NCBI GenBank assembly: GCA_020344055.1
Contig: CP070813.1
Span: forward strand, 295,551 to 359,550
Source: Candidatus Zixiibacteriota bacterium
Lineage (GTDB): Bacteria > Zixibacteria > MSB-5A5 > UBA10806
Length of the DNA: 64,000 nucleotides
Direction of reading: 5' to 3'
Part shown: piece after piece, positions 12,625 to 47,825 of the stretch
How positions within the stretch are numbered: position 1 is the first letter of the stretch
Layout: every line of letters starts with the position of its first letter
The notes under the pieces: model-generated
Told to the model about the DNA's origin: nothing
What the model saw: only the letters and a program-made list of their open reading frames with translations
Databases searched by the model: none
Translations under genes and position numbers: made by a program

Positions 12625-13506
12625 CTATCTGGTCTGCAGGAGCTGATCCTCGGGTATCTGCTTGATATCGAGGCCCTTCATGGCCAGACCGAGCGATTTC
12701 GACGCTTCCGCCACGATTTTCGGGTCGCTGTAATGAGTGGTGGCGAGCACAATGGCTTTGGCGCGTCTTTTCGGATCGGATGATTTAAAGATGCCGGAGC
12801 CGACGAACACCGATTCGGCCCCCAGCTGCATCATCAGCGAGGCATCGGCGGGGGTGGCGATACCTCCCGCGGCGAAATTCGGCACCGGCAGTTTGCCGTG
12901 CTCCTTGACATATTTTACCAGCTCGTGGGGGGCCCCGAGGTTTTTAGCCTCGGTCATAAGCTCTTCATCGTCGAGAGTGGTTATCCGTCTTATCGCGCCC
13001 ACCACGGCTCTCATATGCCGCACGGCCTCAACGATATTACCGGAACCGGCTTCACCTTTAGTGCGTAAAAGCGCCGCTCCCTCGCCGATTCTGCGAAGCG
13101 CCTCGCCAAGATTGCGACATCCGCATACAAATGGGATCTTAAATTTCGTCTTATCGATATGATTGTGCTCGTCGGCGGGCGTAAGCACCTCGGACTCGTC
13201 GATGAAATCGACCTCCAGCGCCTCCAGCACCTGCGCCTCGGCGAAATGCCCGATCCTGGTTTTGGCCATCACAGGTATCGATACCGCCGCCTTGATCTGC
13301 TCGATTATGGTCGGATCGGCCATGCGGGCCACCCCGCCGTCCGCGCGTATATCTGCCGGCACTCTCTCCAGAGCCATCACCGCGCACCCTCCAGAATCCT
13401 CGGCGATCCTCGCCTGCTCGGCGTTGGTGACATCCATGATCACTCCGCCCTTCAACATCTCCGCCAGCCCCACCTTTACCTTAAATTCTTTATCGTTAAT
13501 AAACAT
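12625..13506 (-). CDS. pdxS: Pyridoxal 5'-phosphate synthase lyase subunit
   Basis: [35 protein letters not shown]...GVARMADP is highly conserved PdxS sequence. Confidence 0.92.
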
Positions 13507-14078
13507 AACGCACCTCTCTTTTCAGCCTCCGCAGAGGAAAATCCCCCTGCCGAGTATTTATATCCAGCATAAAAAGATAAGTTTGCGAAATACGGTTGTC
13601 AATATTTTTGGATGGCATCATGGACACCCGTTTACATTCTTGGAGGCGATGGGATGTGGGTAGGCCGCAGGCAGTCGGAAGCCCGGTTTACCGTCGAATA
13701 GCCCTGATCGCGACTGGAAAAGGTATCTTTGCGCTCGATATCACCCCGTAATAACCCCGACCTTACAGCCGGGGTGTAATACTGAAAAAAAACCTTGACA
13801 GAGCTTTAAAATGGATTATTTTGTTCACAATTGCTACTTTGATTATGCCTCATTGATTGTCTTCGGGAATTCAATATTGCGCTTTGACTGAAATGAATCC
13901 CTGCGAAAAAAATGAAAATCAGGATTATTCCGATCTCGTTGTCAATGCCGTCGGCTGCGGTATTTTCTCTAAAAGAATGGGGATACTGTTCGGCCATATA
14001 TTAATCCTGTAACTGGTCGGGAGCCAATGCTCGGGGATTTAAAAAAAATCATAACATTATAAAGATAAGGAGGTAATC

Positions 14079-15371
14079 TTGAAACTGGCAGTTTTAGCTT
14101 TGTTGGGGAGTGTATTATTTATTTTCACCAGTGTTTCATTAGCCCAGGCGCCGGATACCTTCTGGACAAGGATATATGGCGGGACATTCACTGACTGCGG
14201 TTATTCGGTTCAACAGACCTCTGACGGCGGATACATCATTGCCGGATATACGGAGTGCTTCGGTGCAGGTTTGGCGGATGTCTGGCTTATAAAGGCAGAT
14301 AACATCGGCGACACCCTCTGGGCGAGGACATACGGGGGACAAAATATCGATATTGGATATTCAGCTGACATTACTTCCGACGGCGGATTCATTATTGCAG
14401 GGCAAACGCAATCCTTCGGCGCGGGTGGTTCGGATGTTTATCTTATAAAGACAGATGCCAGCGGCGATACTCTGTGGACAAAAACATATGGAGGAACCGG
14501 TAATGACATCGGCTGGTCGGTTGAACAAACCTCTGATGGTGGATATATCATTGCCGGAAACACAACTTCGTTCGGTGCGGGCTCTAATGACGTCTGGCTT
14601 ATAAAAACAGATTCCAACGGGGATACGGCCTGGACAAAGACCTACGGGGGAGCAGATTCCGATGGAGGACGTTCTGTTCAGCAGACCTCTGACGGCGGAT
14701 ACATCATTACCGGAACCACATGGTCATTCGGCCCGGGTGAATATGATATTTACCTGATAAAGACAGACTCCTCCGGCGATACGCTCTGGACCCGGGCATA
14801 TGGCAGTGCGCTTTATGACTACGGTTATTCCGTCGATGTTACCTCCGATAGTGGATACATAGTCGCGGGATGCTGGCAAACGACGGTCCATCCTTACGAC
14901 AATAAGGCGGCTTATCTGATTAAGACGGATACCGGCGGCGATACTCTCTGGACGAAGATCATACCCTTTCCATGGCCGTATGTCACGGAAGAGGCTTTCT
15001 CGGTTCAGCAGACCTCCGATGACGGGTATATCGTCGGCGGGTACTCAGATCCGTACTATGGGCAGTCCAATTATGCTCTTCTTGTTAAAACGGATTCCGC
15101 CGGTGATACGCTCTGGGTAAGGAGATTTCGACTTGTCGACCAACCTTATCAACACCATGCATTTTATTCTGTTCAGCAGACCGCTGACGGCGGATATGTC
15201 GCCGTCGGGTATGGAAGGGGTTGGGATCTTTATTTCCTGAGAGGAGCCTATTTCCCCACCATCCCCACCCTCTCCGAATGGGGTATTCTCATAATGGGGT
15301 TGCTGCTGCTGGCTGTCGGAACAGCGGCCATTGTCAGAAGAAGGAGAACGGAATCGAGAGTACTGAATTAA
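14079..15371 (+). CDS. Secreted tandem-repeat (~47 aa x8, beta-propeller-like) protein with a C-terminal IPTL-CTERM sorting domain
   Basis: TTG start with RBS aaggagg 8 nt upstream. Signal peptide MKLAVLALLGSVLFIFTSVSLAQA. Repeats W(T/A)(R/K)TYGG..D.G.SV.QTSDGGYIIAG.T.SFGAG..DV(W/Y)LIKTD..GDTLW. C-terminal IPTLSEWGILIMGLLLLAVGTAAIVRRRR (15261-15368). Confidence 0.75.
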   Translation: MKLAVLALLGSVLFIFTSVSLAQAPDTFWTRIYGGTFTDCGYSVQQTSDGGYIIAGYTECFGAGLADVWLIKADNIGDTLWARTYGGQNIDIGYSADITSDGGFIIAGQTQSFGAGGSDVYLIKTDASGDTLWTKTYGGTGNDIGWSVEQTSDGGYIIAGNTTSFGAGSNDVWLIKTDSNGDTAWTKTYGGADSDGGRSVQQTSDGGYIITGTTWSFGPGEYDIYLIKTDSSGDTLWTRAYGSALYDYGYSVDVTSDSGYIVAGCWQTTVHPYDNKAAYLIKTDTGGDTLWTKIIPFPWPYVTEEAFSVQQTSDDGYIVGGYSDPYYGQSNYALLVKTDSAGDTLWVRRFRLVDQPYQHHAFYSVQQTADGGYVAVGYGRGWDLYFLRGAYFPTIPTLSEWGILIMGLLLLAVGTAAIVRRRRTESRVLN

Positions 15372-15574
15372 TATTGAAACAAAAAATATATTATACCGCA
15401 AGTATGGAACCGGCCCGACAAGACGGGATTGCGCCCAGGTGGTAATGATATAAGATGATTCTCCGGATATCACGGAGTGATAAAGCGGGTCAATCTTAGA
15501 GGAACACCTGTGGATATAAAAGAATTTCGCCTGTGAGGGTCATTCTCAGATCGACCCCAAAAGGCTAATTCTCT

Positions 15575-15603
15575 TGACTTCAGATCAATATCGGTTAAAT
15601 TAT
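15575..15603 (+). promoter_or_regulatory. Candidate sigma70-like promoter for the beta-helix gene
   Basis: TTGACT, 16-17 nt spacer, TAAATT; about 70 nt upstream of the GTG start. Confidence 0.3.
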
Positions 15604-15675
15604 TACAGAAGACGGCTTGCCGAATATTGAATAGCTCAGCTTCGCTTTAAAACTGCTGCTTTGCGGAGGCTGGTT

Positions 15676-17088
15676 GTGCGCAATAGATTAATATTATACG
15701 GCCTTATTATTGCTTGCATGCCCCTGACATTATGGGCTGCGGTCATCCATGTCCCCGGCGATTGCCCCGCCATCCAGGCGGCGGTCGATTCCTGTGCCGG
15801 AGGCGATACGGTCATGGTCGCGCCCGGAGTTTATTCCGGCGATGGCAACCGTGATATATCCATCTTGGCAATATCTATTACCGTCATCAGTTCCGATGGC
15901 CCGCTGTGGACTATTATCGACGGTGGGAACGGCTATAAAGGCTTCAATATAATCGGTGGCGGGGCGCCTGCCACCGTCATAGAGGGCTTTACCATCCAAA
16001 ACGTCTCCTACGGGGTTTACTGCGATTCCGCTTCCGTTGTCATGAATAACGTCATCATCGAGGATTTCCTGTTCCGGGCGATTCACTTCGACGGTTTTTT
16101 ATACGACCCGCCGTTAACAGCCGATATCGATGAGTGTATAATTCACCAGATAGATCCATCATACCAGGGGACCGGCATAGGCTTCCGCGGAGCCCGGAGC
16201 GTTATCGTGTCGGTATACGGATCTATATTCAGCGATTGCCTTTACGGTTTCGAATTTCATACCCTTGAAAATCGGGTTCCCAATTTCGATATCCAAAAAT
16301 GCGTCGTTAGAAACAATCTGCTCGACGGTATCTGGACTCATTCGTGACACCAGCTTTCGCCGGCGGGTTCGGCGCAATACTGTAATTTCTCGGGCAACGA
16401 CAACTACGATATCCGCGCCGAGGCCTGCAGCGATCCCAACACCGTTATCGACGGCCGCTACAACTTCTGGGTCCGGACCGATTCGGCCAGCATAGCCGAT
16501 AGCTGCATCTTCGATCATCTTGACGATCCCGAGGCCCCCACAGTCGATTTCATGCCTTTCCTGTCCCAGCCGGGCGTGGCCGTTATCGCCGGCGTCGTTA
16601 CCGACGATTCGCTGAACCCCATCGACGCGGTGATAGTGCACGTCGAGGGGCAGATATTCTCCGACACCACCGATATAAACGGCGAATATATGATTGCCGG
16701 GCTGCAGATGGGGTATTGCGATATCTCGTTTTCGCATGACCTTTATGATGACTCCGTGGTTACCGGCCTGTTCGCCGTGATACGCGACACCGCCGTTGTC
16801 GACATGGTCCTCTTCGAATGTACCGCGGACAATTACGTGGTCGGCGACGTTAACGAGAGCGGCGACTACAACGGCCTCGATATAATTTACGGGGTCGCCT
16901 ATTTCAAAGGCGGCGACCCCCCGCCATTTCGATGCATCTGCCCGCCCCACGGGGTCTGGCATCTGGCCGGCGACGTCAACGCCAGCTGCAGCTACAACGG
17001 CCTCGATATTACCTACGGGGTCAACTACCTCAAAGGGATAATCCCGGAACGGCTCCCCTGCCCCGACTGCCCGCCGATCGGGTCGTAG
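15676..17088 (+). pseudogene. Secreted right-handed beta-helix (pectate-lyase-like PbH1) + CarboxypepD_reg-like + dockerin-like-tail protein, interrupted by one in-frame TGA (16345-16347)
   Basis: ORFs 15661..16347 and 16552..17088 are in the same frame. Manual translation across the single TGA is continuous and sensible (...DGIWTHS*HQLSPAGSAQYCNFSGNDNYDIRAEACSDPNTVIDGRYNFWVRTDS...). N-terminal AVIHVPGDCPAIQAAVDSCAGGDTVMVAPGVYSG is the classic PbH1 start. C-terminal CTADNYVVGDVNESGDYNGLDIIYGVAYFKGG...CPDCPPIGS tail. Confidence 0.6.
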
Positions 17089-17138
17089 GCGGTCGGTTCA
17101 TCCGGCCGCGCATAAACCCCTTGACACCTTCTACTGAG

Positions 17139-17291
17139 CCGTCAGGAATCCTTTCCTGACGGTTTAAGACCACCTCAATTGTCATTCCCGAAATCGCTAA
17201 TCGGGAATCTATTATGGGCCAGTTGCAGTAGGTCGAAAGGCTTGCCTTTCGACAACCAGAGTGTCGAAACCATAAAGGTTTCGACCTACTG
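17139..17291. repeat. Cluster of short structured repeat modules: GTCAGG...CCTGACGGTTTA hairpin, attcccga...tcgggaat hairpin, and a 66-nt double hairpin
   Basis: GTCAGGaatcctttCCTGAC (17139-17160); gtcATTCCCGAaatcgctaaTCGGGAATc; cagtaggtcgaaaggcttgcctttcgacaaccagagtgtcgaaaccataaaggtttcgacctactg (17226-17291) holds two perfect hairpins (10-bp and 9-bp stems) plus an outer inverted repeat. The same modules recur at 18523-18680 in a different order. Confidence 0.6.
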
Positions 17292-17296
17292 CCTTC

Positions 17297-17500
17297 CCGC
17301 GTCCGTAGGCGGTCGGTTCATCCGGCCGCGGCCAAGTAGCGATCACGAATGCAAATTCGACAATCCACTTGACAGCAAGTTAAAATGGATTATCTTATAC
17401 ACACAACACGTTCGGCCTACTTTGATCGACTGCAAGGCTGAAATTGGATACGACGAGTTAGCGCCTTTGGATAGACAAACAGATTCAACGGAGGTCTGAG
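17297..17500 (+). promoter_or_regulatory. Conserved ~200-nt promoter/5' leader module shared with the 19007 gene
   Basis: Starts GTAGGCGGTCGGTTCATCCGGCCGCG (near-palindromic hairpin), then ...GCAAATTCGACAATCCACTTGACAGCAAG with a TTGACA -35-like hexamer at 17369-17374, then a conserved RBS region aacGGAGGtctgagGTG. It aligns with 18812-19006 along its whole length; a 27-nt identical fragment also sits at 17085-17111. Confidence 0.5.
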
Positions 17501-18514
17501 GTGAAGAGAGTTATTTCGTATTTTTCCAGATTGATTTTTATAGCTTGCCCCTTACTCGTATTTGTTTTTTCAAATGCCCGCCCAACGGAAAGGATGGTAT
17601 TAGGGGAGTTTTTTAATAATACAGGATGTCCCTACTGTCCTCCGGCAAGCCAGGTTTTGGACCAGTTAGTACAGAATTATGATTCAAACTTCGTTTCAAT
17701 CAGGTATCACATATGGTGGCCATTCTCAAACGATCCTTTCTGGCTGTACAATCAAGGCGAAATCGAGATAAGAAAAATTTACTATAATATTAGTTCCGTG
17801 CCACGTTGTTTTTTTGATGGATCTATTGATGGGGGCGGCGCCTACGGGAATTGGGAGACAATAGTCCAGGATCGAATCTTAGTTGACTCGCCGCTGGACA
17901 TCAGATCTTTTGCAGCTTTTGATAGCGTTTCTTTAACCGGCGATTTAAATATATATGTTATCGCGACGTCTAATATTTCGCAATCCGATTTAAAATTGAG
18001 AATCGCCATTACGGAAAATAACCTGGATTATGGCGGCAGTACATATAATCAGGTTTTCAGGGATATGATTCCGAGTACTGAAGGGATACCTTTTATTATA
18101 ACGGAGGGAGATACGGTAGAGTTTTTTGAGCAATATAGCTGCCCCGCGCCTTTGATTTATCAAAATTGTGAAATTGTCGTTTTTGTACAATCCGATGTTG
18201 ACAGGGAAATACTTCAGTGTAATAGGATAAAAATCCCGGAGGATCTGGTGGCGTGCAACTACGTAGTTGGGGATATCAACGGCAGCGACAGCTATAATGG
18301 TCTCGATGTAACCTACGGCGTGGCCTACCTCAAGGGCGGCAGCCCACCGCCGTTCTCCTGCGAATGTCCCCCGCACGGCGCCTGGTACGTGGCCGGCGAC
18401 GTTAACGCCAGCTGCAATTACAACGGTTTGGATATTACCTACGGCGTTAATTACCTCAAGGGGGTAATACCCATACTGCTCCCCTGCCCCGACTGCCCGC
18501 CGTCAGGGGAGTAA
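17501..18514 (+). CDS. Secreted thioredoxin/glutaredoxin-like (CPYC motif) protein with a dockerin-like Cys-containing C-terminal tail
   Basis: GTG start with GGAGG 8 nt upstream; signal peptide. VLGEFFNNTGCPYCPPASQVLDQLVQNY has a thioredoxin-fold beta-alpha layout with a CxxC. C-terminal CNYVVGDINGSDSYNGLDVTYGVAYLKGG...CECPP...GDVNASCNYNGLDITYGVNYLKG...PCPDCPPSGE (18254-18511). Confidence 0.6.
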   Translation: MKRVISYFSRLIFIACPLLVFVFSNARPTERMVLGEFFNNTGCPYCPPASQVLDQLVQNYDSNFVSIRYHIWWPFSNDPFWLYNQGEIEIRKIYYNISSVPRCFFDGSIDGGGAYGNWETIVQDRILVDSPLDIRSFAAFDSVSLTGDLNIYVIATSNISQSDLKLRIAITENNLDYGGSTYNQVFRDMIPSTEGIPFIITEGDTVEFFEQYSCPAPLIYQNCEIVVFVQSDVDREILQCNRIKIPEDLVACNYVVGDINGSDSYNGLDVTYGVAYLKGGSPPPFSCECPPHGAWYVAGDVNASCNYNGLDITYGVNYLKGVIPILLPCPDCPPSGE

Positions 18515-18522
18515 ATGCGTTA

Positions 18523-18680
18523 CAGTAGGTCGAAAGGCTTGCCTTTCGACAATCCGAGTGTCGAAACCATAAAGGTTTCGACCTACGCAACTGCCCGCCG
18601 GTGGGGCCGTAACAACCCATGCGCCGTCATGAATCCGATCCTGACGGTTTATTGTGTCATTCCTGCGAAAGCAGGAATCC
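18523..18680. repeat. Second copy of the structured repeat modules (double hairpin, GTCA(t)G..CCTGACGGTTTA, attcctgc-gaaa-gcaggaat hairpin)
   Basis: cagtaggtcgaaaggcttgcctttcgacaatccgagtgtcgaaaccataaaggtttcgacctac (18523-18586) is near-identical to 17226-17289. Followed by cctgacggttta and gtcATTCCTGCgaaaGCAGGAATcc. Confidence 0.6.
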
Positions 18681-18754
18681 ATAAAGAAAGGCCATTATGG
18701 ATGCCGGATCAAGTCCGGCACGACGATAAGATGATCTGAGATTAATTGTTTATT

Positions 18755-18797
18755 TAATTATATCCGTATCTTTTCTAGCTCCGCCTCCCCCGCCTAC
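18755..18797. repeat. 45-bp direct repeat copy A; a fragment identical to the 3' end plus stop of the PP-loop gene at 21563
   Basis: TTAATTATATCCGTATCTTTTCTAGCTCCGCCTCCCCCGCC. On the minus strand it would encode ...GEAELEKIRI*, matching the C-terminus of the 21563..22573 protein. Pairs with 21553-21597. Confidence 0.7.
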
Positions 18798-18811
18798 GCT
18801 ATCTGCTGGCT

Positions 18812-19006
18812 GTAGGCGATCGGTTCATCCGGCGGCGAGCAGGTAACGATAATGAACGCAAATTCGAAAATTCACTTGACAGCAATCTATTATCAATTAA
18901 CTTATAGCAGCAACGAAACTTGCCCGCTTTGATCAACTGCGTATTTGAGATGAAGACATTGGCAGAAAGCCTAAAAATAGATAAATAGATTCATCGGGGG
19001 TCTGAG
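18812..19006 (+). promoter_or_regulatory. Second copy of the conserved promoter/5' leader module
   Basis: GTAGGCGATCGGTTCATCCGGCGGCG...GCAAATTCGAAAATTCACTTGACAGCAAT (TTGACA at 18876-18881) ... ttcatcGGGGGtctgagATG. Alignable to 17297-17500, with more divergence in the 3' half. Confidence 0.5.
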
Positions 19007-21427
19007 ATGATGAGGATTTTAGTTTCCGGTTTTTCATTATTTTTCTTAATGATATCGTTACCTACATCCATCAGCAATACGCAGTCCACACTTGACGAAG
19101 ATCCGCAAGAGCACCAGGCAATGACAAATCTATTTTCTTTACCATTTTACTTTACAGAAAATCTTGGACAATGGGGAGAAAAAACGCTTTTCAAAACCGA
19201 GACCGTTGGAGCATCTTTCTATTTTTGTAAAGACGAAGTGGCATATCTATTTGTAAGGAAAACGGACGAATTAATGGATGAGGATTCTTCCATCCGCAAA
19301 ATGATGGGAATGGATGATAAATTTTATAGGCCGCCGTATAAGAAAGAAGCCGTTCTCGTGAAAGTTCAGTTTTTGAATGCCAATCCCAATCCCGAAGTCA
19401 TTGGTATTGATCGTTTGTCTCACAATAATAATTACTTTTATGGCAACGATCCTTCATTGTGGCAAACGAATGCACGTAATTATTCGGCAATTGCATACAA
19501 GGATATATACGCTGGAATCGATCTAAAATATCGCGCCAATGGCAGATCGATGAAGTATGATTTTATTGTCAATCCCGGTGCTGATTATTCGCAAATTCGG
19601 CTTCGCTTTGACGGTATAGAGGATTTAAGTGTCACAGCCACAGGCGATTTGCTGATAGAAACGTCACTTAACCCAGTTTACGAAAAGGCTCCTTCCATTT
19701 ATCAGGAAATCAAGGGAGAAAAACGGGAAATATCAGGCCGATATAATGTAACGGAGCCGGGAATCCTTAGTTTTGCTTTGGAAGAAGAATTTAATCCTCA
19801 TTATCCATTAATTATTGATCCAGAACTACTCTTCAGCACATATCTTGGAGGATCCGATGCAGATGAGATGTTCGAAATAGCTCTCGATACAGATAACGAT
19901 GTCTATGTTTGTGGCATTAGCGATTCCTATGATTTTCCGCTCCTCAATCCCTACGATAGCACAGTTAACGGCAATGACGCGGTAGTTTCAAAATTCGCAT
20001 CGTCAGGGGAAACGCTATTATATAGCACTTTCATAGGCGGTGGGCAATCCGACGTAGCTTATGATATAACGGTTGACCTTAACGGTAATGCGTATGTTAC
20101 CGGTATAGCTTATTCGTCCAATTTTCCGGTTATAAATGGTTATGATGAGATTTTCGATGGTGGCGCCGATGCATTCGTACTTAAATTATCAAGAGAAGGC
20201 GATTCTCTAGAGTATAGTACATTTCTGGGAGGAGGTGGCGGAGAGGTCGGTCGTGGTATCTGCCTAGATTATGAAAATAACGCATACATTACAGGCTACA
20301 CGAACTCTTCGGATTTCCCCATCGTTAATGCATATGATGAATACCTGGGAGGGATTGACGATGTTTTTATAACAAAATTATCATCGTTCGGGAATAGCCT
20401 TATATATAGCACTTACCTTGGTGGATCATCGGATGAACAGGCCCGCGGTATCGATGTTGATTCCGAAGGAAACGCATTTGTAACTGGATATACATCCTCT
20501 TCAGATTTTCCTGTGGTTAACGCATATGATGATAGCTATAACGGAAATATCGACGTATTTGTAAGTGGATTATGGCAGACGGGCGATTCACTCATATATA
20601 GTACTTATATAGGTGGAAGTGACGAAGATAGGGGCGCCGGAGTGGTTGTTGATATAAACGGTAATACGTATATAACCGGAACTACGCTCTCTTCGGATTT
20701 TCCAACTATACAAGCTTTGGACAGTAGCTACAATGGCGATCTGGACGGTTTTGTGTGCAAAATGCCACCTATTGGCAATTCTATAACATATAGTTCTTAT
20801 TTTGGTGGATCTGGAGATGATGGAGGTACGGATATTTGCGTAGATATATGTGAAAATGTATATATTACCGGAGGAACGTTCTCGCCTGATTTTCCGACAT
20901 TTAATGCATATGATTCCACCTACAATAATTGGCATGATGTATTCGTTATCAAACTATTCTCGACAGGAAACATCATTATATATAGCACTCTTTTAGGCGG
21001 AGGCTTTAGAGAGATCGCATATGGTATCAGCATCGATTCGGCAGGAAGCGCATATATTACGGGATATACCATGTCTTCAGATTTTCCGCTCGTCAATCCC
21101 TGTTTTGGAAATTTCGCCGGTTCATTTGATGCGTTTGTGGCCAAATTTGGGCCAAGTTTGGATACGGTTTGCATTTATGTAATTGGCGATGTTAATGCCA
21201 GCGGTGATTACAATTCTCTCGATATATCATTTGGAGTAACATATTTCAAGGGCGGCGAATTTCCGATTTGCGAACCTTGTTGGCTATGTAGTGATTGGTA
21301 CTATTGCGGTGATGTCAACGGTAGCTGTAATTATAATGGGCTGGATATTACGTATGGTGTCAGGTATCTTAAAGATGAACTACCAGAACTAATCCCTTGT
21401 CCCGACTGCCAACTAACGATGCAGTAG
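19007..21427 (+). CDS. Secreted SBBP-type beta-propeller repeat protein with a dockerin-like Cys-containing C-terminal tail
   Basis: Signal peptide MMRILVSGFSLFFLMISLPTS. Repeated units YSTFLGG...D.g.GI.vD..GNAYvTG.T.SSDFP..NAYD (x8-9) follow the SBBP pattern. C-terminal CIYVIGDVNASGDYNSLDISFGVTYFKGG...CGDVNGSCNYNGLDITYGVRYLK...PCPDCQLTMQ (21170-21424). By eye this gene is lower in GC than its neighbours. Confidence 0.7.
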   Translation: MMRILVSGFSLFFLMISLPTSISNTQSTLDEDPQEHQAMTNLFSLPFYFTENLGQWGEKTLFKTETVGASFYFCKDEVAYLFVRKTDELMDEDSSIRKMMGMDDKFYRPPYKKEAVLVKVQFLNANPNPEVIGIDRLSHNNNYFYGNDPSLWQTNARNYSAIAYKDIYAGIDLKYRANGRSMKYDFIVNPGADYSQIRLRFDGIEDLSVTATGDLLIETSLNPVYEKAPSIYQEIKGEKREISGRYNVTEPGILSFALEEEFNPHYPLIIDPELLFSTYLGGSDADEMFEIALDTDNDVYVCGISDSYDFPLLNPYDSTVNGNDAVVSKFASSGETLLYSTFIGGGQSDVAYDITVDLNGNAYVTGIAYSSNFPVINGYDEIFDGGADAFVLKLSREGDSLEYSTFLGGGGGEVGRGICLDYENNAYITGYTNSSDFPIVNAYDEYLGGIDDVFITKLSSFGNSLIYSTYLGGSSDEQARGIDVDSEGNAFVTGYTSSSDFPVVNAYDDSYNGNIDVFVSGLWQTGDSLIYSTYIGGSDEDRGAGVVVDINGNTYITGTTLSSDFPTIQALDSSYNGDLDGFVCKMPPIGNSITYSSYFGGSGDDGGTDICVDICENVYITGGTFSPDFPTFNAYDSTYNNWHDVFVIKLFSTGNIIIYSTLLGGGFREIAYGISIDSAGSAYITGYTMSSDFPLVNPCFGNFAGSFDAFVAKFGPSLDTVCIYVIGDVNASGDYNSLDISFGVTYFKGGEFPICEPCWLCSDWYYCGDVNGSCNYNGLDITYGVRYLKDELPELIPCPDCQLTMQ

Positions 21428-21552
21428 GGTGCGTTATTGTTATTTCTGCATTATCAAAGATCCCCAAAGGCAAAGCATGGATCTGAATCGAAAATCCATA
21501 ATGAATCCCCAATCAGTTTTAGTATGACAATAGAACAATATTAGATTTATTA

Positions 21553-21597
21553 TTAATTTTAATTATATCCGTATCTTTTCCAGCTCCGCCTCCCCCG
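21553..21597. repeat. 45-bp direct repeat copy B; the genuine 3' end of the PP-loop ATPase gene
   Basis: TTAATTATATCCGTATCTTTTCCAGCTCCGCCTCCCCCGCC; one mismatch to 18755-18797. Confidence 0.7.
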
Positions 21598-22573
21598 CCG
21601 GAGCGGTCTCCAGGGCCCCGTCACCGTTCCGGGCGACATAGGTTACTCGCAGAAGCGGTTCGTTTTTGCCGTCGCAGTAGCGCGCTACCACCGAGGCGGC
21701 GGTCTTCATGACCGTCTCATCGGCCTCCCCCCGCAATAGCCCGATCGGGGAGCCGAACTCCAGAACCTCCATTATGCAATCGTCCGGCCGCCGCAGCGAT
21801 TCGATCAGATCGTTTTCCCGTTCATCCCGCCCCACCACCAGCTTGACCCTGTCGCTCAACCGGAAATGCCGTCCTACCCTGAGCAGGTTCAGGTCGTTGA
21901 AATCGGGATCGGGATCGTATTTCAGAAGATCGCGCAGGCGGTCCGAATAACGTTCGTCGGTGAGCAGGCATCCGGCGGCGGGGTTGGGATATTCGGATAG
22001 GCCGAACTGTTCGGCCAGCGCCATCTGGCGTTTGCGGGAACGTCCCTCGATATCCAGAAGCCACTCCCTTTGTATCAGCCCCTCTTTTTCCGGTACGGTG
22101 GGGGGGAGGAGCCTGCCGCAAAGCGGCCGCACCAGCCGCCCCTCCAGGCCGCAGTTCTTGGCGATCAGGTCAAGTGTGAAACGCCTCTGCGACATGGGCC
22201 GTTGACCCAGCACCTCGCCGGTTATCACGAACTGCCCGCCGGTAAGCTCCATGTAATCCCTTGCCTCGGCCAGCATCACCAGCCGGCAGTCGATGCAGGG
22301 GTTCATGTTTCTGCCGCGCCCGTAACGGGGATTTTTCACGATATCGATGAATTTCTGCCCCAGGTGTGCCAGCTTCACCCTGAAGCCGAACTTTTCGGCG
22401 GCAGGGTAGGGGTCGTGCCCGCAGGTCGATCTGTCGGAGGCGTCGCAGCCGAAATGGGTCATGAAGGTTATCGCCTCCACCTCCACGCCGTATTTCATCA
22501 TCTGCAGTATCGCCAGCGTGGAATCCAGGCCGCCGGAATACAACGCTGCCGCCTTTACCTTGATTTTGCTCAC
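21563..22573 (-). CDS. PP-loop ATPase (adenine nucleotide alpha-hydrolase superfamily); ThiI/MnmA-like putative tRNA sulfurtransferase lacking a THUMP domain
   Basis: PP-loop SGGLDS near the N-terminus (KAAALYSGGLDSTLAIL). NPCIDCRL and ITGEVLGQRPMSQR resemble ThiI/MnmA-type motifs. ~120-aa C-terminal extension. Exact function uncertain. Confidence 0.5.
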   Translation of the reverse strand: MSKIKVKAAALYSGGLDSTLAILQMMKYGVEVEAITFMTHFGCDASDRSTCGHDPYPAAEKFGFRVKLAHLGQKFIDIVKNPRYGRGRNMNPCIDCRLVMLAEARDYMELTGGQFVITGEVLGQRPMSQRRFTLDLIAKNCGLEGRLVRPLCGRLLPPTVPEKEGLIQREWLLDIEGRSRKRQMALAEQFGLSEYPNPAAGCLLTDERYSDRLRDLLKYDPDPDFNDLNLLRVGRHFRLSDRVKLVVGRDERENDLIESLRRPDDCIMEVLEFGSPIGLLRGEADETVMKTAASVVARYCDGKNEPLLRVTYVARNGDGALETAPAGEAELEKIRI

Positions 22574-22631
22574 TATCTCATCCCGTTTGATCCAATAGCT
22601 GCATATTCGCGATAATAAAAGACATCAATTC

Positions 22632-22676
22632 TCTAAAAAATCAAATAAAAAGAAAAGGGGCGCGCACCCGCGCCCC
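22632..22676 (-). terminator. Rho-independent terminator of the Rrf2 regulator gene
   Basis: GGGGCGCG-cacc-CGCGCCCC hairpin (22657-22676) followed on the minus strand by TTTTCTTTTTATTTGATTTTTTAG. Confidence 0.7.
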
Positions 22677-22739
22677 TGATTACTGGAACTTCTTTCATTC
22701 CCGGAATCGACAATTCCGGGGATCGAACAGGTAACGCTT

Positions 22740-27177: not shown

Positions 27178-27394
27178 TCGTCTTTGCCTCTTTACTAACT
27201 TCCCGCGCTATATACATTAACAACGGCGCGGGTCAAGCTGTTTCCGATTTCGACGTCAATTTCATCCCTCGACAGCCATGGCTTCAGTCGCTGGGCAGGC
27301 CCCGCCGGGACCAGAAAGTCCGACTCTTACCTTTACGGTCAAAAACCTGTTGTGTTTCGGGAACTATGATCGTCGACACTGGGGCCTGCAGATG

Positions 27395-27482
27395 GTAGGT
27401 CGGAAGCCCCGCCGAAGGCGGGGCGCTTCCGACGTCAGGATTAATAAGTTTTTTTGTCTGGAGCCGGGGGCTCCCGACCTAC
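27395..27482 (-). other. Structured RNA-like element in the lipB leader: outer stem GTAGGTCGG/CCGACCTAC enclosing two GC-rich hairpins
   Basis: gtaggtcgg [GAAGCCCCGCC-gaa-GGCGGGGCGCTTC] cgacgtcaggattaataagtttttttgtct [GGAGCC-ggg-GGCTCC] ccgacctac. It lies between the ferredoxin terminator and the lipB start, so it is transcribed with lipB on the minus strand. Confidence 0.35.
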
Positions 27483-27509
27483 TCGACTACTCGACTGTTA
27501 CCGTGGCCC

Positions 27510-41974: not shown

Positions 41975-43396
41975 ATGAAGAGGTTTGGTATTACGATTAT
42001 GTTTATTTTTTCGGCGGTATCATATACCGGGGCGCAGGATACGCTCTGGACCGGCCATTATGGCCTTATTGACACCACTGAATTGGGCTATTGCGGGGAT
42101 ATTACATCTGATGGAGGGTTTATCGTGGGAGGCGAGTCGAGCAAATTTCTTAACGGGGATATGTGGCTGGTTCGTTGCGATGCAAACGGCGATACTCTAT
42201 GGACTCGTAATTACGGCGCCGCGAGGTGGCAAATGGCCTATTCCGTTATTCAGACGTCAGATGAAGGCTTTATCGCCTGCGGCGAATATAGCGTGGCCGT
42301 GGGTGATTATGATATGTACGTGGTTCGAGTCGACCCCGCGGGCGATACCCTGTGGACTCGCCTGTTCGGGACCGTGGATCAGAATGATTATGGAAGAGAA
42401 ATTATTCAGACCTCCGATGGAGGTTTCCTGGCGCTGGGTCAAGGATATGGTACCAGCGGCTCCAGCGACCTCTATATGGCCAAAATAGATGAATCCGGAA
42501 ATCTGACCTGGAGCAAAACATACGGTTATAGCGGCGGTAGCGAATACGGCTATGGAGCGGTGCAGTTGCCTGACGACGGATATGCGATTGCCGGAAGCTA
42601 TGCCTATTTGTCAACCTCGGATCTCTGGCTTTTGAGAACCGATTCCAACGGGGACACTCTGTGGACCGAGAGATTTGATTTTCATGGTGATGTAGATCGA
42701 GGGGATGATATCGAGATAGCCGACGACGGTGGATTTGTAATTGCCGGGAGGACGAAAAATGCCGGAAACATGCGCCTTTTAACCATGAAAACCGATTCGC
42801 TCGGAAATATGCTCTGGTGGCGCGAATATGGTAGCTCCAGTTCCGATTTCGCCGAATCGATCGATAAAACCTCGGATGGCGGCTTTGTTATCTGCGGCGG
42901 AGCTAACGCTTATCCCTTTGATTTCTTTGTTGTTCGTATAAGCGCCATCGGTGACTCCCTTTGGGCCGGTATATATGATTATGATGGAATACCAGGAGAT
43001 TCCGATGATTCCTTCGAGGTAAGAGTCCATCCAAATGGAGATATAATGGTGTTCGGCTACGCCGACGTCAAAACCGGCACCGGCGCCGACAACGACTTCT
43101 GGGTTGTTAAAATACATGATGGCGCCCTTCAGCAACCGGGTTGCGAGTACGCTGTGGGCGACGCCAACAACAGCGGCAGCCTTAACGGCCTGGATGTCAC
43201 CTATGGCGTGGCCTTTTTCAAGGGAGGCCCCATGCCTCCGTACGAGTGCGAATGCACGCCGGGGAACACCTGGTTTGTGGCCGGCGACGTTAACGCCTCC
43301 TGCTCCTATAACGGCCTTGATATAACATATCTGGTGAATTACTTTAAAGGCGGATCGGATGTCGAACCGTGCGCCGACTGTCCGCCGGCCGGTTAA
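41975..43396 (+). CDS. Secreted beta-propeller-like tandem-repeat protein with a dockerin-like Cys-containing C-terminal tail (paralog of 14079 and 43415)
   Basis: Signal peptide MKRFGITIMFIFSAVSYTGAQ. Repeats WTR.YG...TSDGGF...G...DMWLVR.D.NGDTLW. Tail CEYAVGDANNSGSLNGLDVTYGVAFFKGG..CECTP...GDVNASCSYNGLDITYLVNYFKGG..PCADCPPAG (43142-43393). Confidence 0.75.
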   Translation: MKRFGITIMFIFSAVSYTGAQDTLWTGHYGLIDTTELGYCGDITSDGGFIVGGESSKFLNGDMWLVRCDANGDTLWTRNYGAARWQMAYSVIQTSDEGFIACGEYSVAVGDYDMYVVRVDPAGDTLWTRLFGTVDQNDYGREIIQTSDGGFLALGQGYGTSGSSDLYMAKIDESGNLTWSKTYGYSGGSEYGYGAVQLPDDGYAIAGSYAYLSTSDLWLLRTDSNGDTLWTERFDFHGDVDRGDDIEIADDGGFVIAGRTKNAGNMRLLTMKTDSLGNMLWWREYGSSSSDFAESIDKTSDGGFVICGGANAYPFDFFVVRISAIGDSLWAGIYDYDGIPGDSDDSFEVRVHPNGDIMVFGYADVKTGTGADNDFWVVKIHDGALQQPGCEYAVGDANNSGSLNGLDVTYGVAFFKGGPMPPYECECTPGNTWFVAGDVNASCSYNGLDITYLVNYFKGGSDVEPCADCPPAG

Positions 43397-43414: not shown

Positions 43415-44875
43415 GTGGCGGAGTATAAAATGAAAAAATCTGTATTTCTGGCAATCGCGTTCTCGCTTTTTGTCTCAAACGCTCTCGTGGCGCAGGATAG
43501 TCTCTGGAGCAGGTTTTACGGGCATACCGGAAATGGAGGAGTTTTTGACAGCGATCGCGGAATGTGCGGAACTGTCGCCTCGGATGGGGGTTATGCTATC
43601 GGAGGCGTTTCTTACGCGTTCCAGGGGCTGCTGTCCGAATTCTGGCTGGTTAGAACTGACTCAAACGGGGATACACTCTGGACAAGAAATTACGGGACCG
43701 TCGGATTTGAAGAAGCTCATTATCTGATCCAGACCGATGACGGCGGGTACGTATTATGCGGCGACACCAAACCCTCGGGAGGAAATTATAATTTATATAT
43801 AGTCAGAACCGATTCGCTGGGCGATACCCTCTGGACCCGGAGTTTCGGTTCGCCCGCCGGCGACGATAAAGGATGGGCTATTGTCCAGACCGATGACGGC
43901 GGATTTCTGGCGGTCGGCCACGGGTACGGGTCCGGCTGGGATGTTTATATGGTCAGGTTGAATGAATCCGGAGACTCTTTATGGTCGAAAAAATATGGCG
44001 GAAGCCATCCGGATGCCGCCTACGGAGTCACGCAAACGGCCGACGGCGGTTTTGCCCTGGTCGGGCAGTATGCCAACGATGACTTTGGCGATACCGATCT
44101 GTGGTTATTACGCGTCGATTCTCTGGGCGATACTCTCTGGACCCGGAAATACAGCTACAGCGGCGGATGGTCTCGAGGTGAAGCTATCGCGAAAACCTCC
44201 GACGGAGGGTTCGTTATCGCCGGTCAAAACTGGCTGACACTGACCAATGTTGTGATGCTTCTGGTTCGTACCGATTCCCTGGGCAACGAAATCTGGCATA
44301 AAGAATACGGAGGCCCCAATATCGATAACGCCATGTCGCTCGATATCACCTCCGACGGCGGAATTGTTGCCGGGGGACAAACCGATTCCTTCGGTGGCGG
44401 CAACAAAGATTTTTACATTGTCAGGACCGATTCGAGCGGTGATTCTCTTTGGTCAGCGGTTTTCGGCCATAACGGAATCGATTATTGCCACGAAATCAGG
44501 GTCGATCCGTCCGGCGATATAATGGCTTTCGGCCAGCACCATATATACGGCAGCCAGGATTTCGACTACTGGATGATAAAGATAGCCGACAGTACCGCGC
44601 AAAGTGGATGCGAGTATGTCGTCGGCGATGTCAATGACAGCGACAGCTATAACGGTCTTGATATCACTTATGGGGTCAACTTCTTCAAGGGCGGTTCCGA
44701 TCCGATGTGTCCTTTCGGTTCCTGTTCTATTTCTCCTTGCGACACGTTTTTCTACTGCGGAGATGTCAATGGCAGCTGTTCGTATAATGGCTTAGATATT
44801 ACCTACGGGGTTGCGTATTTCAAAAGCGGTCCCGATCCGATTCCCTGCCCCGATTGCCCGCCGACGGGCGATTAA
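43415..44875 (+). CDS. Secreted beta-propeller-like tandem-repeat protein with a dockerin-like Cys-containing C-terminal tail
   Basis: Signal peptide MKKSVFLAIAFSLFVSNALVAQ. Same repeat family. Tail CEYVVGDVNDSDSYNGLDITYGVNFFKGG..CGDVNGSCSYNGLDITYGVAYFKSG..PCPDCPPTGD (44609-44872). Confidence 0.75.
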   Translation: MAEYKMKKSVFLAIAFSLFVSNALVAQDSLWSRFYGHTGNGGVFDSDRGMCGTVASDGGYAIGGVSYAFQGLLSEFWLVRTDSNGDTLWTRNYGTVGFEEAHYLIQTDDGGYVLCGDTKPSGGNYNLYIVRTDSLGDTLWTRSFGSPAGDDKGWAIVQTDDGGFLAVGHGYGSGWDVYMVRLNESGDSLWSKKYGGSHPDAAYGVTQTADGGFALVGQYANDDFGDTDLWLLRVDSLGDTLWTRKYSYSGGWSRGEAIAKTSDGGFVIAGQNWLTLTNVVMLLVRTDSLGNEIWHKEYGGPNIDNAMSLDITSDGGIVAGGQTDSFGGGNKDFYIVRTDSSGDSLWSAVFGHNGIDYCHEIRVDPSGDIMAFGQHHIYGSQDFDYWMIKIADSTAQSGCEYVVGDVNDSDSYNGLDITYGVNFFKGGSDPMCPFGSCSISPCDTFFYCGDVNGSCSYNGLDITYGVAYFKSGPDPIPCPDCPPTGD

Positions 44876-45017: not shown

Positions 45018-47825
45018 ATGTTTTATTTTCCAGTCCGCAAATCGATTGTTATTCTGTCAACAATGTTTTTATCCGTATTTATTATTACGGCAGCGTTGGC
45101 GCAAAAACCTAAGGTTAAGCTAGAACCGGTCTTGTTTGATAATTTTGAAAGCAGAACTCCCGAAGAGTTGTACGTGCCCGAACACATAACCAAAAAACCC
45201 GGCCACTACACCATCACCGACTGGCAAAACGCCATAGATTCAACCTGGGGATGGGGACGGATTAAATCTCAGAAGCTCGATATTTTTGATTCTGTTTGGA
45301 TGGCAATCGATGGAGAATTCGCCTGCTTTGTTAATCATCCAGATTATTATCCCGGGATGTGGATCGATCTGTACACTCTCTATCGAACGGAGATAGATAC
45401 AGGTAATCCTACATACGGCGTCAGCAGAGGTCGGTTTGCGGCCATCATGAATTACCTGACATTGGCTTTGAAAGAAAGCCATACTGAAGCCTGCGACCGT
45501 GATGTGAATCTTTACACATCTCTTTCACCCGGTGTTCCTCTGTTGGTTCTGGGGCCCTTCGGTGATAACGGACATTTCGGGGCGGGTTTAACCCCCCTTC
45601 CCGACAGCACCTCGCTGGTTTATAGAACCGTGCTGAATCATCCCCTTGGATTAGAGCCCGGTGACATCGTATTGGGTTATGATGGTATCCCCTGGAAAGA
45701 GCTTTATTTCGATCTCATAGACGCCCAGCTTCCTCTATATAGCTATTGGTATGAGGGGAGTTGTGAAAGCGCCTATACCCACGCATGGCTGATGAGCGCG
45801 GGCATGAACTGGCATCTTTTCGACACGCTCGATATCGTAAAATACGGAACCGGCGATACGCTTCATTTATCGGTACAACCATTGATCGGCCAGAACATGA
45901 CTCTTTTCTGCTCGGAACAAATGGACATACCGGGCGTCCCCATGCCGGATTTAAGTCAGGGTATACTCGCAAGTTACGGAGTTATCTCCGGAACCCAGAT
46001 CGGCTACATTTACGTCTGGGGCTGGTATGATGAGGATGTTGAATCACAATTCTATGACGCAGTAAGCGCGTTAGTTAGCAATCCTGATATCACCGGATTA
46101 ATCATAGACCTCAGGTTGAACTGGGGAGGTGAACATCATCTGGCAAATGCTGGATTAAATTTAATCTTCAATACGAAAGAATTAGGATTTGGCTATGGCG
46201 AACGCTGTTCTCCAACTGATCATCTTCTGATGTGTCCTAACGATTTTGCCTATTATCATTATATATACGGATCCGCCAAAGCCTATTTCGATAAGCCAAT
46301 TGCTGTCTTAACAGGTCCTGGTGCGCACAGCGCGGGAGATGTCTTTGCAATTACAATGAAACCGCATCCGATGACAAGGTTCTTTGGAAAGGCGTCGGAA
46401 TCCGCATTTAACGTTCCGGTTTATGTCAGTACTGGATATTCGGATTGGCGTTTTCGCAACGCAATTTGGAATGAGTACATGCTTGATGACCCCTCCAATT
46501 ATCTCACCCATTCCGAATTGGAAATTGATGAGTATATATGGCTTTCTCCATCCGATGTCGCCCAGGGTTTCGATACCGTTGTGGAGAGCGCCAGGAGCTG
46601 GATAAACAGCCAGCAGGGTTTACAGCCAGATATATCTGCCGATTCTACGAGTTATAATGTTACTCTTGATTACGGGGAGATTATGTCTGAGACCTTGATA
46701 ATAAACAATAACGGTAGCCGCACGCTGTTTTACTCTCTAACACCGGAAGTCGATTCCGGAACTGTCTATATGTCGAAAAAACTGCCATCGACCACGGGTC
46801 ATGGGGGTTATGATGATTACGGCTATACCTGGATAGATTCGGATCAGCCGCATGGCCCGGCTTTCAGCTGGGTAGATATTTCCGGGATCGGTACCCCCGT
46901 AAGCCTTGGAGATGATTCGTATGTGGGTCCCATAGATATCGGATTTACCTTCCCATTCTACGGCGACGACCATTCGGAGCTTTATATATGCTCTAACGGT
47001 CTTATAACTTTCGGAGCAGGTTCGGGAGTTTATAATAACACACATATTCCCGGCTCCGGCTCTCCGAATAATTTTGTTGCCCCCTGGTGGGATGATCTTA
47101 ATCCCGCAATCGGGGGAGAAGTTTATTTCCATTCAGATGAAGAACGCTTTATTGTGAGCTTTATAGGAGTTCCCAAATATGGTTATGTAAGTTCTGCCAC
47201 TTTCCAAGCGATACTTTATCCTGATGGTCAAATAGAATTCAATTACCTCAACACCGACCTTGAATACGTAGGTTTCTGGGATTTCTATACTACAACCATC
47301 GGCATAGAAAATTCGGGTGGTTCCGATGGACTCGAGATTTATTATAATGCCCCCTACACTATCGATAGCCTTAGTATTTTAATCAATACCGACTGGCTGG
47401 CCGTGAATCCCCACAGCAGCTACATCGCCCCTGGAGATAATGATACGGCCACAGTAACATTCAGTTCAAAGCATCTCGCCCTGGGGATATATACAGGGGA
47501 TATATATCTCGATTCTAATGATCCTACCGATTCGCTGATTATTATTCCGGTATCGCTTACGGTGACCGGAGGTTGCGATTATGTAACCGGTGATGTCAAC
47601 GGCAGTGATAGCTATAACGGCCTTGATATTACCTATGGCGTCAACTTCTTTAAAGGCGGGAGCGACCCGATGTGTCCTGAATGCGGTCTCTGCCCCGATT
47701 GGCACTACTGTGGCGATGTCAACGGAAGCTGCAGTTACAATGGCTTAGATATTACCTATGGTGTGGCTTATTTCAAGGGCGGCGATGCTCCGGTTCCCTG
47801 CGCCGACTGCCCGCCCATAGATTGA
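45018..47825 (+). CDS. Secreted peptidase S41 (C-terminal processing/tail-specific protease-like) with a dockerin-like Cys-containing C-terminal tail
   Basis: GGAGG 6 nt before the ATG at 45018; signal peptide MFYFPVRKSIVILSTMFLSVFIITAALAQ. S41 motifs GLIIDLRLNWGGEHHLA and PIAVLTGPGAHSAGDVFA. Tail CDYVTGDVNGSDSYNGLDITYGVNFFKGG..CGDVNGSCSYNGLDITYGVAYFKGG..PCADCPPID (47574-47822); TGA stop. The ORF is open from 44934. Confidence 0.7.
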   Translation: MFYFPVRKSIVILSTMFLSVFIITAALAQKPKVKLEPVLFDNFESRTPEELYVPEHITKKPGHYTITDWQNAIDSTWGWGRIKSQKLDIFDSVWMAIDGEFACFVNHPDYYPGMWIDLYTLYRTEIDTGNPTYGVSRGRFAAIMNYLTLALKESHTEACDRDVNLYTSLSPGVPLLVLGPFGDNGHFGAGLTPLPDSTSLVYRTVLNHPLGLEPGDIVLGYDGIPWKELYFDLIDAQLPLYSYWYEGSCESAYTHAWLMSAGMNWHLFDTLDIVKYGTGDTLHLSVQPLIGQNMTLFCSEQMDIPGVPMPDLSQGILASYGVISGTQIGYIYVWGWYDEDVESQFYDAVSALVSNPDITGLIIDLRLNWGGEHHLANAGLNLIFNTKELGFGYGERCSPTDHLLMCPNDFAYYHYIYGSAKAYFDKPIAVLTGPGAHSAGDVFAITMKPHPMTRFFGKASESAFNVPVYVSTGYSDWRFRNAIWNEYMLDDPSNYLTHSELEIDEYIWLSPSDVAQGFDTVVESARSWINSQQGLQPDISADSTSYNVTLDYGEIMSETLIINNNGSRTLFYSLTPEVDSGTVYMSKKLPSTTGHGGYDDYGYTWIDSDQPHGPAFSWVDISGIGTPVSLGDDSYVGPIDIGFTFPFYGDDHSELYICSNGLITFGAGSGVYNNTHIPGSGSPNNFVAPWWDDLNPAIGGEVYFHSDEERFIVSFIGVPKYGYVSSATFQAILYPDGQIEFNYLNTDLEYVGFWDFYTTTIGIENSGGSDGLEIYYNAPYTIDSLSILINTDWLAVNPHSSYIAPGDNDTATVTFSSKHLALGIYTGDIYLDSNDPTDSLIIIPVSLTVTGGCDYVTGDVNGSDSYNGLDITYGVNFFKGGSDPMCPECGLCPDWHYCGDVNGSCSYNGLDITYGVAYFKGGDAPVPCADCPPID

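Follow-up and report, generated by a model that had tools for sequence, protein, structure and literature searches.

The classic signature of an integrative element is a direct repeat taken from the 3′ end of a conserved gene whose own end is restored. Variable surface loci, such as those for O-antigen and capsule, hold ancient alleles between conserved genes and exchange them via the flanking homology. Transposases leave target duplications of 2–14 bp. Homology-facilitated illegitimate recombination (HFIR) is an established route of foreign-DNA integration, in which one-sided homology is combined with microhomology joining (PMC6382021). Here, we analyzed a 64-kb stretch (the window, to which all coordinates refer unless a relative is named) of a 3.83-Mb contig from a metagenome-assembled genome of Candidatus Zixiibacteriota. 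It carries two copies of the 3′ end of a PP-loop ATPase gene, one functional and one orphaned. Between them lies gene C, a secreted-protein gene with its own promoter-like leader. As argued below, this arrangement may well be the scar of a recent recombination that stacked one gene cassette upon another.

Results

Two copies of the PP-loop gene end

The core repeat, TTTAATTATATCCGTATCTTTTC[T/C]AGCTCCGCCTCCCCCGCC, is 42 nt long, and its two copies (Table 1) are identical at 41 positions. Copy 2 contains the stop and the last 11 codons of the PP-loop open reading frame (ORF), which ends in ...ETAPAGEAELEKIRI and is translated as ...AGEAELEKIRI before the stop. Copy 1 is translated to the same peptide and stop. 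An in-frame stop stands just before it, and it falls within no ORF. The one base that differs between the copies is silent (CTG/CTA, both Leu). Copy 1 is an orphaned, dead end of the PP-loop gene, and the 42-nt repeat is a recombination scar without a function of its own. The initial annotation had reported a 45-bp direct repeat at 18755-18797 and 21553-21597, with the second copy as the true gene end and the first as an orphan fragment. The repeat and both roles were confirmed; its length was 42 nt, and the coordinates were a few bases off.

The core gave two matches in the window, and any match was seen in 0 of 100 dinucleotide shuffles. No third copy of either core half was found in the window with up to three mismatches allowed, the other cassette junctions included. 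The core is not palindromic, is not one of the GTAG hairpin elements described below, and showed no obvious inverted-repeat core-site structure by eye.

The C-terminus of the PP-loop protein was compared among relatives. The motif ETAPAGEAEL is conserved, and the last residues are EKIRI here and ERTRI, EEIRI, AKIRI or AGWRV in relatives, differing even among those 85–92% identical. In relative L083, the core is only about 83% identical, as counted by eye on the alignment. The −35 element of leader C lies 83 nt downstream of the orphan. A regulatory role for the orphan was considered and dropped because no evidence was found for it. As the C-terminus evolves fast in relatives, an old, conserved and functional orphan is implausible.

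Table 1. Coordinates of the features at the PP-loop end of the island
Feature	Coordinates	Strand	Description
Gene B	17501..18514	+	Omp28-like protein with dockerin-like tail
Second orphan	18588..18612	+	original gene B 3′ end (..CPPVGP, then stop); stop at 18610-18612
Hairpin H1	18620..18651	+	terminator-like, 3′ of the original gene B stop; also found after gene A (17135-17166) and in relative L082
Left extension, copy 1	18668..18752	.	within spacer IGb, 3′ of gene B; GC 0.41; strong hairpins (fold z −3.0 to −3.8)
Core copy 1	18753..18794	-	orphaned last 11 PP-loop codons plus stop plus 5 nt (AGEAELEKIRI, then stop); non-coding remnant
Junction segment	18795..18811	.	17 nt between the orphan core and the hairpin heading leader C
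R27′	18812..18837	+	GTAG-headed, GC-rich, REP-like hairpin; left edge of the leader homology
Leader C	18812..19006	+	promoter-like TTGACA at 18877-18882, ribosome-binding site and start context common to the gene B leader
Gene C	19007..21427	+	secreted DUF7948 plus six SBBP beta-propeller repeats; dockerin-like C-terminal tail; compositional outlier
IGc	21428..21562	.	current spacer between convergent gene C and PP-loop gene; GC 0.32
Left extension, copy 2	21472..21557	.	within spacer IGc; GC 0.27; AT-shifted; folds like shuffles (z −0.0 to −0.3)
Core copy 2	21558..21599	-	functional PP-loop 3′ end; stop at 21563-21565
PP-loop ATPase gene	21563..22573	-	Pfam ThiI/tRNA_Me_trans HUP domain plus NFACT-R_2; conserved backbone gene, right anchor of the island

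Homology beyond the core lies on one side

The blastn search matched 18668-18794 with 21472-21599 (128 nt, 74%, E 6e-16), so the similarity reaches beyond the core on its left. There, 18668-18752 and 21472-21556 align over 85 nt without gaps and share 54 identities (64%); none of 20000 shuffles did as well. The similarity is found in both parts of this extension separately, with 28 of 47 core-proximal and 26 of 38 distal nucleotides identical. The differences are directional: 18 sites are G/C in copy 1 and A/T in copy 2, and 6 sites are the reverse. To the right of the two cores the flanks are unrelated, and the homology ends sharply.

Four strong hairpins persist in spacer IGb (fold z −3.0 to −3.8), which is what a former spacer between convergent genes would show, whereas IGc folds no better than shuffles. 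The two spacers are homologous in register up to the PP-loop stop, which argues that each of them formerly lay next to the end of a PP-loop gene. Identity jumps from 64% to 98% precisely at the edge of the conserved gene. Such a step is expected for two old alleles of a variable locus lying between homogenized core genes.

At the joint, the right end of the core, GCTCCGCCTCCCCCGCC, was compared with the end of the dockerin-like family tail, GCTCC-CCTGCCCCGAC. The two share a C-rich similarity of 15/17, which is imperfect and includes one gap. This similarity is possibly a weak microhomology at the joint. The stretch from the core to leader C had also been read as a fossil tail end with a TAG stop. 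That reading was mostly withdrawn, the GTAG being the head of a recurrent REP-like hairpin.

The bracketed segment is compositionally foreign

Gene C has a GC content of 0.407. At third codon positions, its GC content (GC3) drops to 0.357, the minimum among 46 long ORFs (mean 0.582, sd 0.071; z −3.2). For the bracketed stretch 18795-21557 (2,763 nt), the tetranucleotide correlation with the window was 0.641, against 0.862±0.052. This is the window minimum for 2.76-kb stretches, and none of 223 non-overlapping stretches was as low, a score that the internal 192-nt SBBP repeats may inflate somewhat. The AT shift spans leader C, gene C, its tail and spacer IGc together. GC is 0.42 in leader C vs 0.48 in its counterpart, 0.41 in the gene C tail vs 0.59–0.61 in the tails of genes A and B, and 0.32 in IGc vs 0.46 in IGb. 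The bracketed promoter-plus-gene segment is thus compositionally foreign. The lower GC noted in the initial annotation held up on calculation.

The high GC of the right flank is no sign of a boundary, since the PP-loop gene is intrinsically GC-rich in all relatives. Its GC is 0.61 here and 0.56–0.61 across relatives, 10–15 points above the neighboring genes (0.42–0.50). Its GC3 of 0.766 is the highest of the 46 ORFs. Gene B is compositionally chimeric, with a body of GC 0.40 and a tail of 0.59; gene C is AT-rich throughout.

The core is younger than the cassettes

The B and C units are colinear, each running from hairpin (R27 or R27′) through leader, gene, tail and spacer to the core. Apart from the hairpin (24/26) and the core, the shared modules are 62–77% identical: 68–71% in the leader, 71–77% in the tail and 64% in the spacer. 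Leader C with the first codons of its gene (18812-19014) aligns to 17305-17508 at 71%, and the leader, including the codons for MMRI, is of the B type. The core differs significantly from its outer extension (41/42 vs 54/85; Fisher p = 7e-6).

Leader C, leader B and the leader of the gene B orthologue in relative L086 were aligned. The three are equidistant, at 65–68% identity overall and with 30/35/31 informative sites, indicating that leaders B and C have been separate for about as long as the two genomes. Over the same span the PP-loop C-terminus changed. An orphan that still matches at 41/42 must postdate the cassettes by far and stem from this lineage. The cassettes are thus old and the 42-nt duplication young.

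The island between pdxS and the PP-loop gene varies among relatives

The backbone around the locus is kept in relatives, in the order LytB-PdxT-PdxS, island, PP-loop-Rrf2-QueG-...-DinB-methyltransferase-LplA. In every relative readable past the PP-loop stop, this island, which runs from pdxS to the PP-loop gene, has other contents or another cassette order. It holds SEC-C, HNH and beta-lactamase genes in L002, SOD and HtrA in L001, ORF6N/pRha and HepT/MNT in L081, two DUF5677 genes and an orthologue of gene A in L082, and a Na/sulfate symporter in L085. The two closest relatives with sequence past the PP-loop stop are L083 (92% protein identity) and the one whose contig carries P0005 (89%). 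In L083, a gene with a dockerin-like tail is convergent on the PP-loop gene. On the P0005 contig, an Omp28-like gene takes this place; its C-terminus could not be read. It is no close orthologue of gene B, as it is missing from the top gene B matches.

For cassette order, 13786-15082 and 17322-18508 of the window were compared with L086. L086 has pdxS, the gene B orthologue and the orthologue of gene g14079, whereas the window has pdxS, g14079, genes A, B and C, and the PP-loop gene. The difference indicates that cassettes were reordered between genomes. No orphan PP-loop 3′ end was found within 10 kb at the loci of 72 relatives, island-bearing ones included. Mosaicism in the PP-loop gene that would mark a crossover gave no signal, identity to five relatives being uniform.

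Several side observations were made at this locus. Compared with their orthologues in L082 and L086, genes A and B carry each other's 3′ flanks, a swap that suggests recombination inside the conserved tails. The L084 contig ends 36 nt after the PP-loop stop, and the L083 and L088 contigs also break at or near the PP-loop end or the gene B tail. These breaks are consistent with population-level variation or repeats at the island. A more distant relative, L090, carries a gene B orthologue (71%; 53-1006) roughly 1.5 kb away from a Phage_integrase/Xer-like gene; pdxS and the PP-loop gene are both absent from that contig.

Genes, leaders and tails of the island

Gene C has no orthologue. Its best homologues do not exceed about 55% identity, and among them is a paralogue from the same genome that bears another C-terminal tag. 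Orthologues of gene B share 77% and 71% identity with it. Gene A (15661-17088) combines a beta-helix-like N-terminus, CarboxypepD_reg and a dockerin-like tail in one reading frame, broken by a single in-frame stop near 16345-16347. The L082 orthologue aligns through this stop (80.6% over 961 nt). The internal stop is a pseudogene mark or a sequencing error.

Six genes share a tail of about 85 amino acids (16819-17088, 18245-18514, 21161-21427, 43130-43396, 44600-44875 and 47550-47825). It consists of two dockerin-like Ca-binding repeats and then PC[PA]DC. In five of the six, PP.G. and the stop come next, and gene C ends in PCPDCQLTMQ. Against Pfam PF00404 (Dockerin_1), the six tails scored 12.9–19.7 bits, below the gathering cut-off of 22.9. 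Of the earlier label "dockerin", the form "dockerin-like" is acceptable. In Zixibacteria, this tail is joined to many unrelated N-terminal domains (plastocyanin, beta-helix, FG-GAP and others). Proteins with a T9SS Por_Secre_tail and with IPTL-CTERM also occur in the window, so that at least three C-terminal tags coexist.

A promoter-like motif, CTTGACA-N11-12-TGGAYTATCTTRT, lies upstream of g14079 (13790-13830) and gene B (17365-17400), and in a weaker form upstream of gene C (18873-18905). It is kept in the L086 orthologues (595-640 and 1845-1880). A gene for an ECF-type (extracytoplasmic function) sigma factor is present at 2185-2910.

Hairpin elements and a second orphaned gene end

The spacers carry recurrent hairpins. 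A 27-nt unit, CGTAG followed by the hairpin GCGGTCGG-TTCAT-CCGGCCGC, occurs at 17084-17110 and 17304-17330 with 100% identity. The two copies bracket 193 nt of hairpins, and the TAG of the unit is the stop codon of gene A. R27′ is identical at 24 of 26 positions to these perfect copies (17085-17110 and 17305-17330). Two other Zixibacteria genomes contain relatives of the unit (L086 1754-1771 and L081 5230-5247), one of them in an unrelated spacer. Inverted pairs of GTAG-headed, GC-rich hairpins (GTAGGTCGAAAGG...CCTTTCGAC / GTCGAAACC...GGTTTCGACCTAC) were found at 17222-17289, at 18519-18586 and at about 27380-27500. Two copies of this double hairpin are 96% identical, and it resembles GTAG-tagged REP/REPIN elements (PMC3733652). 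The window has 7 perfect GTAG-plus-hairpin sites, where shuffles give about 2.4; two of these spacers account for 6 of them.

The end of gene B was displaced by an insertion of about 98 nt that carries the 68-nt double hairpin at 18519-18586. The new end reads CPPSGE. The original end was left as a second orphan, 140 nt from the PP-loop orphan; it equals the C-terminus of the orthologue P0242, and its identity to the tail end plus hairpin of L082 is 88%. A consensus terminator scan of 16800-21800 found none, though clear hairpins are present. An Rfam search of 13400-22700 matched no family.

Discussion

Probable stacking of two cassettes

We give a probability of roughly 0.55 to the reading that illegitimate recombination, recent and assisted by homology, placed a second terminal cassette beside the PP-loop gene and stranded the old gene end. 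The island would be made of secreted-protein cassettes, each running from a promoter leader with a hairpin at its head through the gene body and its dockerin-like tail to a spacer rich in hairpins. The gene B cassette would formerly have been the last one, in an ancestor or in one strain, with IGb abutting the PP-loop stop. Cassette C (leader C, gene C and IGc) would also have stood beside a PP-loop end, most likely in a conspecific strain with an anciently diverged island allele. A first, homologous crossover would have taken place in the shared PP-loop gene or, in a mirror version, on the pdxS side. The second joint, an illegitimate one, would have formed 37 nt into the PP-loop reading frame, perhaps through C-rich microhomology with a tail end. 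Such an event would leave the PP-loop 3′ end intact and strand the other copy of the last 11 codons 2.8 kb away, between gene B and leader C. We infer the strain-to-strain origin, the direction of the event and the microhomology joint. Set against the features of HFIR, the locus has an anchor gene and a compositionally foreign insert; the joint has a weak C-rich similarity (15/17), and the next 17 nt are unmatched.

Several points weigh against this reading. The 17 nt after the core match no known tail end, and with GTAG as a hairpin head rather than a fossil stop, the argument from microhomology is weak. Neither unstacked arrangement (B-IGb-PP-loop or X-C-IGc-PP-loop) was found in any genome. 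Pattern scans of metagenomes matched neither the exact core nor the degenerate, back-translated AGEAELE[EK]IRI plus stop. Gene C lacks a close orthologue. Composition and this lack of orthologues favor gene C as the newcomer, though B may have been the one added. A 64% spacer beside a 98% core would need ancient island alleles within one recombining population, which is plausible. Finally, the bacteria in which HFIR has been documented are naturally transformable, a trait not known from Zixibacteria.

Alternative explanations

The colinearity of the two units, module by module, would also follow from an in-situ tandem duplication (by unequal or microhomology crossover) with later divergence, replacement of the gene body and maintenance of the core by short-patch gene conversion. 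Leader C, down to its MMRI codons, is of the B type, and the perfect 27-nt patch nearby (17084-17110 = 17304-17330) suggests that short-patch homogenization may occur here. This model requires at least three steps, however, and we consider it unlikely. Gene bodies are unrelated (Omp28-like vs DUF7948/SBBP) and identities are heterogeneous, neither being what a simple tandem duplication leaves. The B/C leader split is about as old as the split between genomes, and leader, gene, tail and spacer are AT-shifted as one block. Gene conversion confined to the 42 nt would be mechanistically awkward, with no homology on their right and 64% on their left. Modules at 62–77% beside a core at 98% (41/42) are incompatible with a single event plus neutral decay; this contrast in age (Fisher p = 7e-6) ruled out one tandem duplication followed by such decay, and it left the tandem duplication with partial deletion offered in the initial annotation unsupported as a single event. 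The rearrangement footprint with a foreign promoter-plus-gene segment proposed there was supported, and the site lies in a variable island.

That annotation had also suggested a target duplication. Direct repeats do flank an inserted segment, but a transposon-type insertion with target-site duplication is effectively refuted. The 42-nt repeat is far above the 2–14 bp known for transposases, and the 85-nt degenerate extension lies on one side only. The ends of 18795-21557 carry no terminal inverted repeats (811 of 1000 shuffles score as well), and Pfam scans of the 46 long ORFs in the window found no Phage_integrase, Resolvase/Recombinase, transposase or Y1_Tnp (RAYT). The same scans bear on site-specific integration, in which the core would be an att site and the gene C segment an integrase-less, cis-mobilizable remnant or a step of tandem accretion, with a tyrosine or serine recombinase acting in trans. 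The direct repeat does come from the 3′ end of a conserved gene whose end is restored. Mobile-looking cargo occurs in the islands of relatives (ORF6N/pRha and HepT/MNT in L081, HNH in L002), the degenerate outer homology could reflect related att arms in sister elements, and GC3 rises with distance from the PP-loop gene (0.357 in C, 0.497 in B, 0.517 in g14079). We nevertheless regard this explanation as improbable: no integrase or recombinase was found in the segment or the 64-kb window, the core has no obvious inverted-repeat structure by eye, and there is no sign of att reuse, with no extra cores at up to three mismatches and no orphans at the 72 relatives' loci. Nor does the locus look like an array of integron gene cassettes, since it has no integrase, its cassettes have their own promoter-like leaders, and no attC-like junction site is present. 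An assembly chimera of two co-existing strain alleles was also weighed. The source is a metagenome-assembled genome, and contigs of relatives break at the PP-loop end (L084, L083 and L088), as at a polymorphic locus that is hard to assemble. A chimera needs a shared k-mer at the switch point, though. What follows copy 1 on the right (TACGCTATC...) has no relation to what follows copy 2, and the passage from the core into leader C must therefore be present in real reads. In addition, the copies differ at one base and the record is one 3.83-Mb contig. We judge a chimera very improbable.

We keep a small probability for a dedicated cassette system, in which the secreted-protein genes of the island, each with a leader headed by a GTAG hairpin and a common dockerin-like PC[PA]DCPP tail, would be moved, reordered and stacked by an unrecognized 3′-end recombination, REP/RAYT-linked or site-specific, with direct repeats from gene 3′ ends left behind. 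The ground for keeping it is that two further repeats from gene 3′ ends, and REP-like hairpins in the spacers, accompany the scar; in all, three 3′-end-derived direct repeats (23, 27 and 42 nt) lie within 4.5 kb. If such a system existed, the 42-nt repeat would be a recombination site and not an accident.

Meaning of the scar

On the preferred reading, the stacking of two cassettes by homology-assisted illegitimate recombination, the scar would be a dated marker, showing that the last cassette of a Zixibacteria island for surface or secreted proteins was added recently. The addition would have used the neighboring housekeeping gene as a homologous anchor, without mobile-element genes. The event would have stacked two pre-existing cassettes and made no new member, so that the growth of the dockerin-tail family, which the segment had been thought to illustrate, does not follow from it. 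Together, the scar and the permuted order in L086 would illustrate the reshuffling of tail-tagged secreted-protein repertoires in an uncultured phylum. The breakpoints are exact and can be used with conspecific genomes for testing the exchange of island alleles from strain to strain.

Comparison with known systems

The spacers resemble the GTAG-marked REP, REPIN and BIME elements (PMC3733652; PMC2817692) in being mosaics of GTAG hairpins, among them an inverted doublet in two copies that are 96% identical and a 27-nt unit in two copies that are 100% identical. Unlike these elements, the 42-nt core is non-palindromic, and the window holds no RAYT.

With att-bounded islands at gene 3′ ends, the locus shares a repeat of a housekeeping 3′ end, a restored gene end, an orphan at the far end of the insert and a variable site. 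It differs in that no integrase or excisionase is found in the window and that the repeat is missing from the other junctions and from the islands of relatives. The homologous flank beside the repeat on one side is not predicted by att recombination alone.

Like O-antigen and capsule-type loci, the island lies between conserved flanks (pdxS and the PP-loop gene), differs in contents in every relative and shows a sharp drop of identity at a gene boundary. Its low-GC cargo for secreted or surface proteins is a further likeness. In contrast to these loci, it is made of single-gene cassettes, each with its own leader and a common tail, rather than a biosynthetic operon, and its two alleles would have been stacked, not swapped.

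HFIR has been described in Acinetobacter, Streptococcus pneumoniae and P. stutzeri (PMC6382021). The event here differs in being deduced from a single genome. The microhomology here is imperfect (15/17, with a gap), and the joint lies inside the anchor gene, with 42 nt duplicated rather than deleted. What the locus has in common with HFIR is a conserved gene on one side, a non-homologous joint with a short GC-rich similarity and an insert of foreign composition free of mobile-element genes. The scar is genuine, but it adds an ordinary case to a known kind, and it lies in a fast-changing island.

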